Source: Octopus vulgaris
Lineage: Eukaryota
Reading direction: 5' to 3'
Length of the DNA stretch: 64,000 bases
Assembly: GCA_951406725.2 (NCBI GenBank)
Contig: OX597817.1
Location: 116,312,001-116,376,000 of the forward strand
In this document: positions 7,547-61,950 of the stretch, one piece after another
How positions within the stretch are numbered: the stretch's first letter is position 1
How the letters are laid out: each line of letters begins with the position of its first letter
Notes under the pieces: model-generated
Databases searched by the model: none
What the model was told of the DNA's origin: nothing
What the model saw: the letters and a program-made list of their open reading frames with translations, nothing else
Program-made: the position numbers and the translations under genes

Positions 7547-7985
<439 letters not shown>

Positions 7986-7989
7986 TTTA

Positions 7990-8021
<32 letters not shown>

Positions 8022-8069: not shown

Positions 8070-8245
8070 AAAAAACCAAGAAAAAACACAAAACAGCAAC
8101 AACGCGAGGACGTGGTACATGTAAAGTATTAACAGACGCTCAGGGAAGGAAAGAAAGGTGGTTTTACGTTTCGGGCAAAGCTCTTCTTCAGAAACAGGAG
8201 AGTCTAATAGAAAAGGAAGACGGAAGGAAAATTCGCCAACGATTA
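8070..8245 (-). mobile_element. PLE-type terminal repeat (family F) with minimal hammerhead at 8161-8195
   Basis: gttt-CTGAAGA-A-GAGC-TTT-GCCC-GAAA-CG-TA-aaac. Homologous to 12460-12600 and 41165-41360. Confidence 0.75.
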
Positions 8246-9647: not shown

Positions 9648-10892
9648 ATTGGTTTCAAATTTTGACAAGTTCGTGGAAGGGGTTACCTCGATTACATCGA
9701 CCAATGACTCCAATTGTTTGAAAGGCAAAGTTGACCTAGGTGGAATTCGAACGCAGAACGTAAAGGTGGACGCCGTGCCGCTAAGCATTCTGCCGGACGT
9801 GCAAATTATTGTGCCAGCTCGCTTCCGTTCATAACAGTTTAATATTAGTTAGATATAAGGCGGTGCAATCGTTATCACGCCAGGCAAACTGCTTAGCGGC
9901 ATTTCGTACATCTTTACTTTCTGAGTTCAAACTCCACCAATGTTGACTTTGCTTTTCATCATTCCGGGTTCGATAAAGTAAGTGCCAGCAGAGCCCTGGG
10001 GTCGACATAATTGACTTACATCACCCCAGAAAGTTCTGACCTTCTGTCAAAATTTGAAACCAATATTAGTGGGAACAATAAGGCGGCAAGCTGTCAAAAA
10101 TCATTTCCACGTTGGGAAACAAATTTTGCATTATTTCGTCCTCTTTCCACCGTGCATTTCATCTCTTGACTCGATAAAATAAATACCAGTTGAACACTGG
10201 GGTCGATGTAAAAGATAAAGAAGGCACGGTTTACTGTAATCAATGTATCTCCAGCCAGAAATTGCCGACTTTGCGCCAAATATTTTAAAGCAATATTATT
10301 GTGACAAATAGGCAGCGAGCTGGCAGAATCGTTAGCACGCCAGGCAAAATGCGTAGTGGAATTTCGTCTGCCGCTGCATTCTGAGTTCAAATTCCGCCGA
10401 GGTCCACTTTGCCTTTCATCCTTTCGGGGTCGATTAAATAAATACCAGTTACGCACTGGAGTCGATATAATCGACTTAATCCGTTTGTCTGTCCTTGTTT
10501 GTCCACTCTATGTTTGGCCCCCTTGTGGGTAGTAAAGAAATAGGTATTTCGTCTGCCGTTACGTACTGAGTTCAAATTCGGCCAAGGTCGACTTTGGCTT
10601 TCATACTTTCGGAGTCGATAAATTAAGTACCAGTTACGCACTGGAGTCGATATAATCGATTTAATCCGTCTGTCTGTCCTTGTTTGTCTCCTCTGTGCTT
10701 ACCTCCTTGTGGGTAGTAAAGAAATATGTATCTAGTCCGTCTATAAGTTTTGGATTAAAATTCTGCTGCAGTCAACTTTGCCTCTTCCCACTGTCATGAT
10801 CAGTAAAATAAGTGGCAGTTGAGAACTGTGGTCCATATAATCGGTAAAACACCCACACCCCAAATTGCTAGCCTTGTGCCAAAATCAGAAAG
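9648..10892. mobile_element. Cluster of about six tRNA-derived SINE family B copies (one minus, five plus)
   Basis: Repeated ggcggcgagctggcagaa..gttagcacgcc...ctgagttcaaattccgccgaggtcgactttgcctttcatcctttcggggtcgataaa..agtaccag. Approximate copies: 9648-9832(-), 9858-10062, 10081-10290, 10310-10545, 10541-10725, 10755-10892. The central part resembles the Meta/MESC SINE domain (from memory). Confidence 0.9.
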
Positions 10893-11024: not shown

Positions 11025-11171
11025 TAAATTATTGTTTACTTTTGCCGGATATTTGTCCTCAACTGTTTGTTGTTAACACAGAATTTCGGCTGATATACCC
11101 TTCCACCTTCATCAGGTATCTTGGAGATATTTTGAACCTGAGTTCTCATTCCTAAGGTATTTTCGGTGTTG

Positions 11172-30279: not shown

Positions 30280-32916
30280 TGCTTTGCAGTATATTCTGAA
30301 AGTTGTATTAAGTACTTGCCGCACTTCTATTACTCAAAATCTTTCAATCATATGCTAGTCAAGATATTTCATATTTTCCTCTACATAGGTACCTAAGACT
30401 TATTGTCTTCCTATCGCTCCTAACAGAGTGTACTCATGATGTATAGATTTCTAACTTAATTACAAGAATAAAATTTTGGAGTAGAATATGGTGGCCCATT
30501 TCAATCACAACAGAGAAATACTACATATTTTATCAATATCGCAAAAATAAAATTCCCAACTACTCTCGGCGATATTTGAAAGCCGATGTAGTTCGCAAGT
30601 AGGTAACGATGGACAGAATGTATGAAAATTCAGCAACTTAGCAATGAAGCGCACTCAAAATTTCATTAAATTGCCAAGTGAGCGCTTTGAATATATATGT
30701 CATGCCAAAACACTTATGATAATTTATTTAACTAACTTTATAACAAGAGCAATCCATTAAAATTTATCTGAACGAAGCATTTCTCTACTGGAATAGAAGA
30801 AAGAAAAACCCTTACCCTAGTTACTCTGTGTCGAAATTCGATACATTTATTTACAGTTGTAATAATTCTCACTTTTAAAACATCTTCACAGCTCTCTCTG
30901 AAACAGAAAACATAATTCGATCTCAGAACTTGTGTTCAAAGCTATCTTTTTAGCAAACATTTTTATTTGGTATATTTATATTTTCATGGTAAGTGTTCAT
31001 ATACCTAACATATATTTATTATATGCTAAACTGATATGTAATATATTCTTAGTTTATTAATAATAAACAGATAACTAAGGTAATCTAGGTTTCCTCTGTA
31101 TAAACTGGTAACTAATATATTCTAAATTTATTATGAATTAATTGGTAACTAAGATAATCAGCAGATAGTGATATAACTAAGAAATAATCTTAAGTGAGAT
31201 TAATTCTCGTTTTGTCTCAGAGTAGTTTTTTTAATACATAGTACAACTACTTCAAGTATTTACCCGCCATTTCAACAAAATTTCCATTGAAATGTAGCTT
31301 TCATAATAGGATACGAAATCAGCTTTCAGTATGGTGCACGTTTTTTACCAGTCTCCAGTTATCACTCGATCTGATAGCCGTTGTGATCTTTGTTATTTAC
31401 CACATACTTCTGATCTCGGAAATAAGCGTGTTAGTGAATGAGCCATAAACAGTATAAAAAAAAATTAATATGAAATGCAGTGAACTTCGTTCCGTGAATT
31501 CAGTTTAATCAGCTCTTTTGTTATCTCATTAGATTGTATTATGACTCATTTTCTCTCTGTGTTCAAGTTATTGTGATACATCATTTCAGATATTCCATGT
31601 AGTGATGCGTTACATGCTATAATGGACATCCCATGTCAGGTTTCCAGCTGCAATTATTTCTTATAAATGATTTTAGATTGCGTTGGGGAAACCGATACAG
31701 TAAAAAATAAAATAACGGCGAAAAATGCGTGCAACTATATAGCTTGGACATCTAATATCTCTCGCGATAAGTCCATGAATATCACCACATTTCATTGGTA
31801 AGGTGCCAAGCACATTTCAGACATTTCCTCCAAGAGAAGGAATTCTACGTAGCACCACAAGCAAATCAACTGTTATTCTGTTCTACAGTGTCTTGGATAA
31901 CTACTTATCCCAATGAATTCATGGATCCGTACTAATCATAGATAAAATGTTAAAAGTAATGAGAGCTATGCAGGTTTTCAATCAAAATATAATCCTTGAA
32001 ATAATTAGCTATTGTTCCGATTATTTTTACATAGTTAATGATAACTGAAACAGAAATCCAATATTTTTTTTTATTCTTAGCTCATAATTACTTTATTTTT
32101 TTTATTTTTACTGACTATGGCTTCTAACTTTATCATCAGTTTTAAATTTAGCTACATTTTCCCCTATGTTTATATATAAAGTTAATCACTGGTAAATAAT
32201 CCCTGATTTGTAACAGATTTACAATTTCTAGCTGATAGTATATTTCGTAGCTGAAAGCGTAATGAAAAGCCAATACCAGCCAATTATAATAAAACTAATC
32301 GTTCAACAGTTTATTTTGAATACAACTATTTCTAAAGTTTAGCCGATTTTAAAAAAGATGGGTGCGTGTTCAATTGTAACAAATCTCAATTGTAACAATT
32401 TTTATGGAGAGCTCTAGTATATCACATATACCTTTGAGAGATTGTTGCCATGATACACATATTTCTATCAATAAAACAATATGACATTTTTGGTGAAATA
32501 TACATTGTGATATCTCGCTCTCTCTCGCTCTCTCTCTCTCTCACTCTCTCTCTCTCTCTATCTATCTATATCTGTATTTATATATATCTACACACACACA
32601 CACACACACGCACGCACATATATGTATATATATTGTTGTATCTCGGGATGGTCATTTTTTTGCCAAATAAACACACGCATTACATATTTGTTCTTCACTC
32701 GCTTATTACTGCTCTTGTATTTTAAAAAGTTTAGTTCATGTCTATTGTCCAAAAATTTTTCGTCACCCATCTGTGACTTCTTCAGCGACACTTTTCATTT
32801 CCGTGTGCCCTCTTACACCCCTTACTCCATTCTGTGTGTTTATTCGGCAAAAAAGCCCGAAATACAATATCTGTTTCAAAACACTGTTTCGCATCAAGAA
32901 TCTTGCAACACAAATT

Positions 32917-32988
<72 letters not shown>

Positions 32989-33002
32989 ATATTTATATAT
33001 AT

Positions 33003-34190
33003 CGCTCTAAAACCACAAATTACTCACTATTAAAATACAACAGCGAATGCAACAAGCATAACAAAAATACGCTTAACTTGTATGAACTACAGAAGTAAGG
33101 AATTCGTATATTCCGGGATCAAATGATTTTGCTTTTTGTATGAGAAACATACTTAAACTCCTCCACCAGACTTAACGCTACAATAACTATTTCTGAAATA
33201 TTCACCACAATACACCGTGTGCATTTTTACATTTGAATGCCCCCGCGACATTCAAAACGAACATATTATGAGCCAGTATAATTTAAAGTTAAAAAGGTAT
33301 CATTCCCATTATTAATAAGAATAACGATAATAATAAAGTGGCAAGCAAGTTTACGCCATTGTAGATAAAATATAAACAAAATTCAGGACAGTATTCAAAT
33401 AAAACTTGCTATAAACAGCTGTCACTCTAAAACGTGTTCAGAAATAGTTGTTGTGGCGTTAAGCCTTGCTGATGAGCTTAAGTATGTTTTTCATACAGAA
33501 AGTGAACTCAATTAATCCTGGAATATACGCATTCCTTAATTCTGTAGTTCATACAAAGTAAGCCTATTTCTGTTATGTTTGTTGCATTCGCCGCGTGTGT
33601 TTTAATAGTACGTACTTTGTGGTTTTAGAGCGACTGCTCGGTTTATAGCAAGTGGTATTCTAATACCCTACTGATTTTATTTATATTATACCTATGACGG
33701 TGAAAACGTACTAGCCACTTTATTATTATCGTTATTATTATTATAAATGGTAATGATACCTATTTAATTTTAGATTAAACTGTCTGACGATATGTTTATT
33801 TTGAATGTCGCAGAGGCATTCAAATATAAGTACGCACACGGTGTAATGTGACGAATATCTCAGAAATAGTTGTTGCAGCGTTAAGTCTGGCTGACGAGAA
33901 TGTTTTTTCATACAGAAAACGAAATCAATTCATCCTGGAATATTCGCATTCCTTACTTCCGTGGTTCATACAAAATAAGCCTATTTCTATTATGCTTGTT
34001 GCATTCGCCGTGTGTATTTTAGTAGTGAGTAATGCGTGGTTTTAGAGTGATAGCCCTGTTTATAGCAAGTGGTAATTTAATACCCTACTGAATTGTATTT
34101 ACATTTTACCTATAACAGCGATGTAAACTTGCTAGCCACTTCATTATTATCATTATTATTATTATTAATAATGGTAATGATACCTATTGA
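33003..34190. mobile_element. Family R array: one inverted ~430-nt unit plus ~1.8 direct units (period 422), each with a hammerhead motif
   Basis: cagaaatagttgttg recurs at 33439 and 33861. 33003-33435 is a reverse-complement unit. HHR motifs at 33464-33522, 33886-33939 and a degenerate minus copy ~33112-33170. (TA)n on both sides. Confidence 0.88.
33886..33939 (+). ncRNA. Type I hammerhead motif
   Basis: tctgg-CTGACGA-G...C-GAAA-TCAATTCA-TC-ctgga: G10.1-C11.1, AUC triplet. Helix II is partly deleted relative to the 33464 copy. Confidence 0.65.
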
Positions 34191-34953
34191 AATTTATATA
34201 TCTATATATATATAGCCATCTGAGTAGGTGAGACATTTTCCGCTTGTGAATTTCTTTGGGTTTTTTATTAGCTGTACGTGTTATTTCTGCGATGTTGTGT
34301 CCTTTTGTATTTCTTGCAATCGTAGATGGGAGAGCGTTATTATTTGGTTTAGGGAAATTTGGGAGATTAGTTGTGAGCATTTTTTGTTTATATTGTATAT
34401 TTTCCCGCATTTCTATATTCACTTATTTAAGTATCATTTTCTTGTTTATGTGTGTAGAGGGTTTTCAATAGAATGTTTTCAATGGGTTTATTTGAGATAA
34501 TTTATTTAGAAAAGTTGTAACACAATGTGTGTGTTCTTAGTTCTATATCTGGTTGCTTTGGACAAATGTAAAATTAATAAACTGAGTCGAGTTTTGTGTC
34601 ATATTCATATTTCATAGTCGACAAAATAAAATACCACTCTATTACAAGTGACTGTGTAGTAAATTGTACATGAAAGTGTGTAACTGAATATACACCATCC
34701 ACAAAATCTTAGGAACATGGCAGGATTAATGCTTTGCTCTTTTAGAAATTGAATGGCTGTTAGAATATCACTGTGATGTTTTTAAATGTGGAAACAGAAC
34801 ACTTCTTCAATGGCTTACATTTTACCATTGGAACATAAATAACTCAAAGAAATAGCACCTGCAACTATGTTGTGCTTTGTAATTAATCATTAAGTTGAAA
34901 TATACATATACATACATACATATATATATATGTGTATGTACATATGTATATGC

Positions 34954-38829: not shown

Positions 38830-39330
38830 TATTTGTCAGTCTTTTATGAGTGCATTCATTTGGAGGTTTGCTGGATAATTGGGAGATATTTTTTAGCGGC
38901 TCTCGCACTGCTGAAATTCCTTGGTTTATGAGCAACGACGAAAGGGATAACTGTTTTTCTTTTCTATTTTGTTGGGTTTTTTCCCAGTGTTGTCACTGGA
39001 ATGCTCTAGGCCATGGAGATAGCCGTATTGATGAGGTTCACCGAATATTCTTCTCTTTTAAGATACCATCTTAGTTCATATAATCTTCTTTTTCTGTAGT
39101 GTGGATGTGTTATTATGGTGCAGATACTTCTTGCCATATGAAAGAGAATGTTGCTGATCGGAAATTTAAGTATTGATGGGTGCCTGTTGGTTTGCAAAAT
39201 AGGTCGTTTTAGATTTCCCCCCTTCTTTAATGATAAGTATATCCTGAAACGTGCTTACGATGGAATGAAATTTTTGCAGGTCTTCGGAAACATAAAGAAG
39301 AATTCTTTATTAGAAAGTACAAAGACTACT
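38830..39330 (-). mobile_element. Penelope-like element RT C-terminal fragment
   Basis: FQDILIIKEGG (PFLD motif position), ...MARSICTII....RKRRLYELRWYLKREEYSVNLINTAI. Confidence 0.82.

Positions 39331-58875: not shown

Positions 58876-58877
<2 letters not shown>
58595..58877 (+). mobile_element. 3' end of R4/Dong-type LINE (last codons plus 3' UTR) followed by (AAT)n
   Basis: GVPGNPKIAEIQKILLVGTAHILRKILSM* matches the LQKxxLLGTAHILRKVL C-terminus. Confidence 0.85.
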
Positions 58878-59920
<1,043 letters not shown>

Positions 59921-60053
59921 ATATATATAGTATACTATTCCAATATGGTAAGATGAACAAAAAATTACTCCATAAACACAATATTTGTATTATGTGCTAC
60001 TATTAATCATTCGCGGTCTGAGTATGCCAAAGAGTTATTTTTTAACACGTTTG

Positions 60054-60264: not shown

Positions 60265-61950
60265 CGGGAGAATTTACAAGAAACAAAACACAAAGGCAGG
60301 TGGTGTAGACAACAAACAGTTATATTAGTTTAATGCTCGGGAAGTGAAAGAGTCTTTGAAGTTTCGAGCCTACGCCCTTCCACGGAATGGAACACAGAAA
60401 GGAACAAGGGGAGATAATAAAATAGTGGTCATCCGAAAACGAAGGTGCGCGTGTCTGTGCATATGAGAATATGTATGTGCTTGTGTAAGAAGGCTGGTGA
60501 GCTTGCCGTGTTATGTGTAGGTTTGAAGGTGTAGGCTGGGAAGTAGTCAGTGCTAGTGTGTGCATGGTGGTGTGATGTGTTGTGTGGTATGGTGGTGTAT
60601 GGTGTAGTGGTGTGTGGTGTGATGAGATGATGTTGGGAGTTGGGGGAAGCGAGAGTGAGGTAAGCAAGGGTGGGCGGGTGTTAGGCTAAGAGTGGGATTA
60701 GCGATTGAGTATGTGGGTAGGAAGAGGGTGGGGGTAGAGGTGGGGTATGCATGAGGGCTGTAAGGGATATGGTGGGGTGGGATGGGAAGGATAGGGGAGG
60801 TGGAGTTGGAATGTGTAGGGTCGGGTGGGGTTACGAGTGAGGGGTGACAATGAAGGAGGGAAGGAGTGTGGCTATGAGTGAAGAGAAGAGAGGAGAGTAG
60901 AAGTTAAGAGAAATAGGAGTCGGAGCGAGAAAAGAGGTTGGTGGACAGAAGTAGGAGTGAGGGTGTGAGAGGCGAGGGGAAGAGGTTAGATGAAGAGGGG
61001 AGGAGAGTTGAGCCCATGTGGCGCAAACGAGAGAAGGGAGAAGATTAATCCCTGTTCATGCCGGAAACGGTGGGACAATCCGAACAAGGTCAGGTGTTGC
61101 AAAGTGTGACTTGTAGAGCGGAAATAGCGCGAGACCAGTGCGTCATTGCCGAGTCGGATGTCTCGGAGGTGTCCCGTGAACCGGTCCGCCAAGAGGCGTC
61201 CCGTTTCCCGATGTATAGAGAAGGGAAGAGAGAGCAGGAGATGCAGTAGATGACATTGGCAGAACTATAGGTAAAGGAGTCGTTGATGTGATAGGATCGA
61301 TAATGGTTGCCGGTGAGGAGGGTGGTGTTGGAGAGGTAAGGGCAAGTGCGACAGCGTGGGCGGGATCAGTGGAACGAGACGGGTTGTGATGTTGGGTAAG
61401 GGAAGATGCTATGGAACAAGAGGTCTCGTAGCTTGCGGGGTCGTTTGAAGTAGGGGAGGTGACAGTTAGGGAAGATGTGCATTGTGGAGGGGGTCGAACT
61501 GGAGTCCCCAGAAAGCTCAGAGAATGGAGGGTTGGAGAGGTAGAGTGGTGGGGTGGTAGGTGATGGGAAAGGGAGACGGGAGACGGCGCAGCGGGTTCGG
61601 GGGTAAGAAAGAAGAGGCACGGTCCACGGAACGTGCTCTGGTAAGGGCGGTGTTGATAGTGGTGAGGGGATAACCACGTAGGATGAAGTGGCGAGCCATG
61701 AGTTGAGACTGAGTCTCAAGGTCATGGTCGTCACCACAGAGCCTGCGTATACGGAGGAATTGGGAATAGGGGATGGAACGCTTGCTGTGTCTAGTGTGGG
61801 AGGAGAAGTTAAGGTATGAGTGTGAGTTTGTGTGTTTGTAGAAGATGGAGCTGGTGAGAGTGGAGTGATGAATGCTGGCCGAAATGTCAAGAAAGGAGAC
61901 AGGTATCAGATATAGCGCAGGAGAAGTGGAGGGCAAGATGGAAGGATTTG
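60265..61950 (-). mobile_element. 5'-truncated Penelope-like element (Neptune-like): RT C-terminus, Cys linker, GIY-YIG, pyrimidine-rich 3' region, family G terminal repeat; flanked by (TA)n
   Basis: VSFLDIS...IFYKHTNSHSYLNFSSH...SIPYSQFLRIRRLC...RGYP; *SRPRCRTC; NVIYCISC...LYIG...RFTGHLRDIR...HGLN. Degenerate HHR at ~60353-60387. Confidence 0.92.

Follow-up and report, generated by a model that had tools for sequence, protein, structure and literature searches.

Non-LTR retrozymes of animals have been described in corals, mussels (350-390 bp) and the axolotl (330/350 bp) (Cervera and de la Pena 2020, PMC7229834), and both this class and its proposed origin from Penelope-like elements (PLEs) are in print (Cervera and de la Pena 2020; Li, Clavereau and Pollet 2026, bioRxiv 10.64898/2026.07.22.740005). 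The published link between animal retrozymes and PLEs is based on co-occurrence and on similarity to the pLTRs. For a retrozyme copy to be called 'active', it must hold two units in succession, each with a complete hammerhead (Li et al. 2026). The PLE protein PAc (Poseidon of Anolis) was reported to nick and extend both strands of AT-rich DNA, starting at two internal sites in vitro. Cleavage by the hammerhead was unnecessary for insertion, uncleaved RNA being the main substrate (Frangieh et al. 2024, PMC11167929).

A family of this kind is present in a stretch of 64,000 nt from Octopus vulgaris (contig OX597817.1, positions 116,312,001 to 116,376,000), referred to here as the window. The contig is one of 227 in an assembly of 2.8 Gb. 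Runs of (TA)n and (TTA)n abound in the window, and a general repeat search of it was dominated by microsatellites. The octopus family is an animal non-LTR retrozyme, that is, a non-autonomous PLE, and forms a new family within a known class. Three loci in the window belong to it (nhmmer E 1e-90 to 1e-39). They have one layout in common, since each consists of a direct segment with a head-to-head inverted arm (Table 1).

Table 1 Features of the retrozyme loci in the window (positions within the 64,000-nt stretch)
Feature	Position	Strand	Remarks
Direct array, subfamily A, 1.8 units, 5'-truncated	33436..34199	+	Direct-repeat offset 422-424
Head-to-head inverted arm, 1.03 units	33000..33433	-	3' end merges into (TA)n run 32919-33002
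Type I hammerhead, first pass, main array	33464..33522	+	CUGAUGA conserved, GAAC in place of GAAA; predicted cut after 33517
Type I hammerhead, second pass, main array	33886..33939	+	Core intact, helix II lacks 5 nt; predicted cut after 33934
Decayed hammerhead of the inverted arm	33112..33170	-	Both core boxes altered
Candidate intron-like stretch GTAAG...TAG, 91 nt	33558..33648	+	Not retained across all subfamilies
Predicted stem TAGCAAG/CTTGCTA around GGTA-n-TACC hairpin, with first fixed 3' end (~34094-34105)	34063..34134	+	
Second GGTA-n-TACC hairpin with second fixed 3' end	34173..34199	+	Downstream of (TTA)n linker ~34143-34170
Direct array, subfamily B, 1.7 units	59091..59745	-	Offset 401-410; runs into (AAT)n tract 58877-59091
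Head-to-head inverted arm, 0.47 unit, 59-kb locus	59744..59936	+	Overlooked in the preliminary description
Type I hammerhead, 59-kb locus	59286..59345	-	Intact core, U-U at helix II base, GUA cleavage triplet
Subfamily B segment, 0.65 unit	7646..7914	-	92% to consensus
Short inverted arm with second fixed 3' end, then TA run	7914..7990 (start approximate)	+	7949-7990 matches in opposite sense
Hammerhead, best preserved in the window	7802..7863	-	Helix I TTTCAA/TTGAAA

The main array extends from -505 to +261 relative to its last cut site, is 89% identical to the consensus and stops at the second of two fixed 3' sites, with a TA run adjoining. The 7.6-kb segment stops at the first of these sites, against a (TA)n run (7547-7647). 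A preliminary description of the window had reported direct repeats with periods of 422 at the main locus and 401 at 59091-59740. Both repeats are real, but as tandems of units the two arrays fall short of full dimers. At 7.6 kb the related segment was recognized correctly, whereas its reading as a single unit (7645-7985) does not hold, a partial unit with a short inverted arm being present instead. The inverted block at 33003-33435 is indeed about one unit long. Its permuted appearance is a single instance among arms whose lengths vary over ~0.1-1.0 unit. An inverted arm had been noticed at the main locus only, while the other two loci have one as well. As an observation, the earlier account is thus partly confirmed. 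Both the junction of the inversion (33010-33501, 6 differences) and that of the tandem (33559-34086) are spanned by contigs of sequencing run X2, the former also by contigs of run X1. Because X2 contigs, perhaps related to the assembled sample, span both junctions, the layout of the main locus is not an assembly artefact.

Among the 150 listed of 173 Rfam matches in the window (E<=1) there was no hammerhead and only microsatellite-driven miRNA matches were found; the motif was therefore examined by direct tests. In subfamilies A and B, the consensus carries a complete type I motif. It has helix I, CUGANGA, helix II interrupted by an internal loop, GAAA and a palindromic helix III, and the triplet is AUC or GUA/AUA. 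A full core with covarying helices is found in the consensus of every subfamily. An exact pattern, which constrained core and helix III only, gave 143 genomic matches against 0 in a reversed control. In 86 of these matches helix I is Watson-Crick paired at 0.71, compared to 0.45 for shuffled partners (highest shuffle 0.52), and helix II at 0.86 compared to 0.39; these controls ignore relatedness, and ~10 of the 86 motifs come from groups without demonstrated whole-unit homology. The covariation over these genomic motifs supports the view that the type I hammerhead fold is real. Helix II is closed by a U-U pair in 39/86 motifs, as in axolotl HHR_Amex2, and this feature was dropped as a novelty since it is in print (Cervera and de la Pena 2020).

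Within the window the motif occurs at six places, three of which have intact cores (33891 +, 59340 - and 7857 -). Of the other three, the one at 33469 has GAAC, the one in the inverted arm of the main locus is destroyed and the one at 59745 is truncated inside helix II. The earlier statement of one hammerhead per unit is overstated, as half of the places have lost an intact core. Its core change makes the first-pass hammerhead of the main array likely inactive. It had also been stated that helix III is close to ATCAATTGAT and that the loci have diverged while retaining the fold, with helix I TCTGG/CTGGA in one and TTTCAA/TTGAAA in another. Both statements hold for the window loci, all of one family by nhmmer. 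Neither window array contains two complete hammerheads, and no direct pair of hammerheads one period apart was found among 100 listed of the 143 exact matches. The lack of copies with two consecutive hammerheads bears on activity, not on family membership.

The unit measures 414-425 nt in subfamilies A, B and D, with a G+C content of 0.33. Periods are mostly 401-425 nt and in some cases 443-462, with outliers at 303-392 and 629-794. The A and B consensuses are 75% identical. Copies average 88-90% identity to their own subfamily consensus, which indicates that the copies examined are old. They are dispersed across most large contigs, and one match in 160 kb fetched for other reasons, a single observation, suggests that thousands of copies are present. 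When the consensuses of A and B are folded in circular form, their z scores are -8.2 and -5.4 (40 dinucleotide shuffles) with two thirds of the bases paired; one natural period from the window gave -4.4. The reverse strand folds much worse (-83/-87 against -123/-114 kcal/mol for the hammerhead strand, A/B consensuses). A structure is shared by 12 subfamily consensuses that are 45-90% identical, with 28/45 pairs changed on both sides and 500/534 cells paired, counted on the very alignment from which the structure was derived. Redundant records of a single place had been removed before counting, as had L016 and L017, which are segmental duplicates. This alignment excludes group G and single motifs, both of which are included in the 86 motifs. 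Group G (L195-L198, L251, L252, L194) and the loci L250, L199 and L200 have an identical helix III with little similarity in the unit, and their helix II is closed at its base by a C-A pair or in some other way. By their sequences they are probably separate families.

A PLE-like coding remnant was absent from the unit (best tblastn E 1.5), in agreement with the earlier remark that it has no recognizable ORF. Subfamilies A and B contain an intron-like GTAAG...AG stretch of 91-92 nt, which recalls the introns of PLE pLTRs but is not retained across all subfamilies: the donor is missing in E1-E3 and I, and the acceptor is altered in D, H and F. Identity at the putative splice sites among copies is near background, and the conserved blocks also pair in the predicted fold. 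A spliced form was not found; a junction pattern gave one match, outside the family, and there was no spliced joint among the 15 listed of 25 contig matches.

The ends of the copies were mapped for 129 segments at 80 loci of subfamilies A and B, taken from the top-scoring candidates only. With whole-unit queries, 74/85 segments have their 3' end at one of two sites, compared to 19% expected; the first (+155 to +190 from the cut) accounts for 35 of them and the second (+228 to +270) for 39. These ranges are wide because the alignment ends given by BLAST are blurred by the TA runs and by the (TTA)n linker. The two sites lie at ~+165 and ~+255, ~90 nt apart, and in A and B each is located just behind a GGTA-n-TACC hairpin. 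Overall, 106/129 A/B segments and 30/40 segments of subfamily D end there. In contrast, 5' ends are scattered over the unit, with 4/129 within 8 nt of the cut (~5 expected). A (TA)4+ run is present at 66/129 3' junctions compared to 113/1580 flank samples, and a head-to-head inverted arm at 31/80 loci and at all three in the window. Permuted start points of the units had been named earlier as a test of the circular template. The two fixed 3' sites show the opposite and rule out circular permutation of the ends. The inverted block at the main locus provides no evidence for a circle. From the end mapping, the fixed 3' ends, 5' truncation, inverted arms and (TA)n targets are taken as marks of PLE insertion. 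At L110, L116, L118, L053, L056 and L038 the junction between direct and inverted segments falls at +116 to +137, at a common TTTTAG beside the 3' stem, hinting that two cDNAs pause or anneal there.

In comparison with described systems, the octopus unit resembles animal retrozymes in being non-coding and a few hundred nt long, in its G+C content of 33%, its single type I hammerhead with short palindromic helix III and its strongly self-paired predicted circle, and in the co-existence of autonomous PLEs. Unlike published retrozymes, which range from dimers to hundreds of units with long arrays in coral and axolotl (Cervera and de la Pena 2020), no two-unit copy was found here, and for the octopus family cleavage and the circle are predictions. 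No description of fixed internal 3' ends, (TA)n targets or inverted arms for retrozymes was found in the available text of the two retrozyme reports (Cervera and de la Pena 2020; Li et al. 2026). Such features are known from the EN+ PLEs Neptune and Naiad, in which 5' truncation, partial tandems, two alternative 3' ends, an inverted 5'-truncated copy beside the 5' end and an insertion bias towards (TA)n were reported (Craig et al. 2021, PMC8557442). A hammerhead in the repeat is likewise shared with EN+ PLEs (Cervera and de la Pena 2014, PMC4209133). However, the octopus unit lacks an ORF, its helix III is of canonical size, unlike the minimal hammerhead of EN+ PLEs, and its 3' ends are ~90 nt apart instead of the 30-40 of PLEs; Naiads have no hammerhead, while the octopus unit carries one. 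As in PAc, there are two internal ends downstream of the hammerhead next to a stem-loop, the target is AT-rich, and priming on both strands would explain the head-to-head arms (Frangieh et al. 2024). PAc differs in being autonomous, with start sites in the ORF, and in clade and sequence; its mechanism was shown in vitro, that of the octopus family would follow by analogy. Non-autonomous Chlamys PLEs such as MRC1 are also non-coding, with pLTR-like and head-to-tail insertions (Craig et al. 2021). These are algal and, as far as described, generally similar at the 3' end to a known autonomous partner, whereas the octopus family matched none.

On balance, we favour the explanation that a type I hammerhead repeat of ~400-450 nt is copied in trans by the RT-endonuclease of a PLE, probably of Neptune type, from a one-unit RNA that is likely circular. 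A copy spanning two hammerheads would be transcribed by read-through. The hammerheads are predicted to cut, perhaps as a dimer via the palindromic helix III, and the monomer would be religated into a self-paired circle. As the fixed ends suggest, the PLE protein would nick (TA)n DNA and its RT would start at either internal site, each just behind its GGTA-n-TACC hairpin. Passage of the RT through the joint, with random drop-off, would account for the observed lengths of 0.1-1.8 units, and priming of the second strand for the observed inverted layout. The fixed ends are compatible with a circle, since PLE RT starts internally (Frangieh et al. 2024). A linear monomer running from cut to cut was ruled out as template: 88/129 segments cross the cut site, and 5' ends are not enriched there. 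The cut site itself is free of indels (0/287 and 0/350 cells, which are not independent, compared to 3.3% and 2.1% elsewhere). Upstream and terminal passes differ in their majority base at 7/178 and 6/205 positions, located in the linker or at thinly covered edges. Sharing of non-consensus bases is about threefold as frequent among passes or arms within an insertion as it is between separate insertions.

The scar-free cut site, the similarity of passes and their shared variants would also result from uncleaved read-through of a homogeneous partial tandem. This leads to a second explanation, which we regard as unlikely but worth serious attention: the same non-autonomous PLE may have as its template a linear RNA that reads through partial tandems and stays uncleaved. 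The tandems would be renewed by template jumps or by insertion beside an older copy, and the hammerhead would be a passenger or act later. PAc indeed inserts unprocessed RNA, hammerhead mutants leaving insertion unaffected (Frangieh et al. 2024), and 1/9 Xenopus dimers was cleaved in vitro according to Li et al. (2026). A source copy of 1.8 units could yield all observed lengths, which are below two units. However, linear copying by itself would shorten arrays and let their passes diverge. Within the subfamilies, which differ by 10-55%, the passes are nevertheless alike. A common upstream source flank was not found among the matches listed in an all-against-all comparison, save for a common interspersed repeat. 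The lack of a scar at the cut site and the covariation of the hammerhead helices in every subfamily also argue against a linear template. Judged from these sequences, a religated circle is moderately favoured over a linear template. More tentatively, a dozen related retrozyme subfamilies in this genome may preserve the whole cycle in their ends. A religated circle made by the hammerhead would be read by a Neptune-type PLE enzyme from two duplicated internal GGTA-n-TACC signals, with both (TA)n strands primed. If true, this would be direct genomic evidence of PLE machinery rolling around retrozyme circles, with the cis signal named. Several findings speak against copying of a circle in trans as preferred here, namely the distance of ~90 nt between the two 3' ends compared to the 30-40 nt tail of PLEs, the lack of a partner with a common 3' signal among 42 PLE locus records, the absence of segments as long as two units, the preference of PAc for uncleaved RNA and the lack of a hammerhead among the Rfam matches listed.

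The genome harbours many GIY-YIG PLEs with a CxxxxCxxC linker, including intact RT plus GIY-YIG ORFs of 781 aa. The unit is not common to any of the 42 PLE locus records (30 loci having been retrieved out of 150 scored, from 6136 GIY-YIG candidates), except for an independent copy on the opposite strand in L074. A continuous partner was found neither by a GIY-YIG scan, 12 extended PLE loci and nhmmer with two family profiles nor by tblastn with 8 PLE ORF pieces. PLE protein matches were detected in 0/121 A/B records, 5/86 hammerhead loci and 1/30 D records with queries of Neptune type, which distant clades may escape. None of these six loci is continuous with the unit (L210 lying outside the detailed reading): three matches are on the opposite strand, one belongs to a separate element with its own hammerhead, one is 3.2 kb off behind an inverted arm, and in L225 a same-strand GIY-YIG fragment lies ~390 nt upstream of a truncated unit. 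L225 was dropped as a partner because another copy of its family is not followed by the unit; L212 was read and then set aside. As matches are rare and none is continuous with the unit, the family is non-autonomous as far as sampled, and at the loci examined the unit is self-contained and free of an attached PLE ORF, as had been proposed.

The same results bear on the idea that the unit is the pseudo-LTR of autonomous PLE families with rare or decayed ORF copies, the copies being 5'-truncated remains. An intact PLE in this genome carries at either end a pLTR of 456 nt, which is of the same size class; the two are 99% alike and have (TA)n flanks. The L225 fragment and the range of the protein queries may also be brought forward in favour of this idea. 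Nevertheless, the 39/129 segments that are longer than one unit always re-enter the unit instead of an ORF (3/129 span two cut sites, 0/129 reach two units), and with PLE protein matches this scarce and discontinuous the idea is improbable. That the repeat is an ordinary minisatellite or SINE formed by DNA-level duplication, with a chance hammerhead resemblance, might fit the Rfam result and the microsatellite-rich surroundings of the copies, but is very improbable and already largely refuted by covariation and end mapping, given the dispersal on most large contigs, the absence of two full units, the fixed 3' ends and inverted arms, the strand-specific fold and a window without a tRNA gene.

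With regard to the interpretation offered earlier, the retrozyme-like, non-coding and hammerhead-bearing nature of the repeat, with its PLE insertion marks, is borne out by covariation, fold and end mapping. The term 'undescribed system' cannot be maintained, as the class is already in print (Cervera and de la Pena 2020; Li et al. 2026), and the interpretation as a whole is partly supported. Literature searches listed no publication on the octopus family, which may already have a name in Repbase or Dfam. Given that the class is already described and that those copies which were examined are old, the surprise is modest. To the evidence for the retrozyme-PLE link the family adds marks at the level of insertion: two fixed internal ends, (TA)n targets, head-to-head arms and a scar-free cut site. 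It also supplies a candidate for the start signal, and the intact PLE ORFs of this genome are possible partners; the question of a circular or linear template thereby becomes testable in vitro.

Several other elements were encountered. L091 (contig C16, 20834500-20841500) is an apparently young PLE with many identical GIY-YIG matches genome-wide. A 359-aa open frame lies ahead of the 781-aa RT-GIY-YIG frame and extends over its start region, and the 456-nt pLTRs of L091 have an intron-like stretch and no hammerhead by the pattern used. The 3' regions of L094, L099 and L101 belong to an autonomous PLE family with two 3' ends ~35 nt apart and no profile match to the unit. Helix II of its pLTR hammerhead begins and ends as in subfamily D (TTGC...GCAT, U-U closure), and the family is possibly a relative of the partner. 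Decayed PLE fragments of RT and endonuclease are located in the window at 38859-39220 (-) and 61186-61894 (-), with tblastn E down to 1e-15.

Separated from the inverted arm of the main locus by the (TA)n run is another, distinct type I hammerhead element (32640-32915, -; core at 32785, helix II GTCAC/GTGAC); a related piece is present in L089. Minimal hammerheads of the PLE pLTR type occur in three copies, at 8191 (-), 12530 (+) and 41239 (+), and the stretch 8060-8260 matches 25/282 locus records. Hammerhead-like motifs of other repeat families are found at 11115 (-) and 45870 (+), the latter closing helix II with U-U. Finally, 10361-10843 is a tandem of ~2.5 copies of a 185-nt unit, which resembles a common short interspersed repeat.
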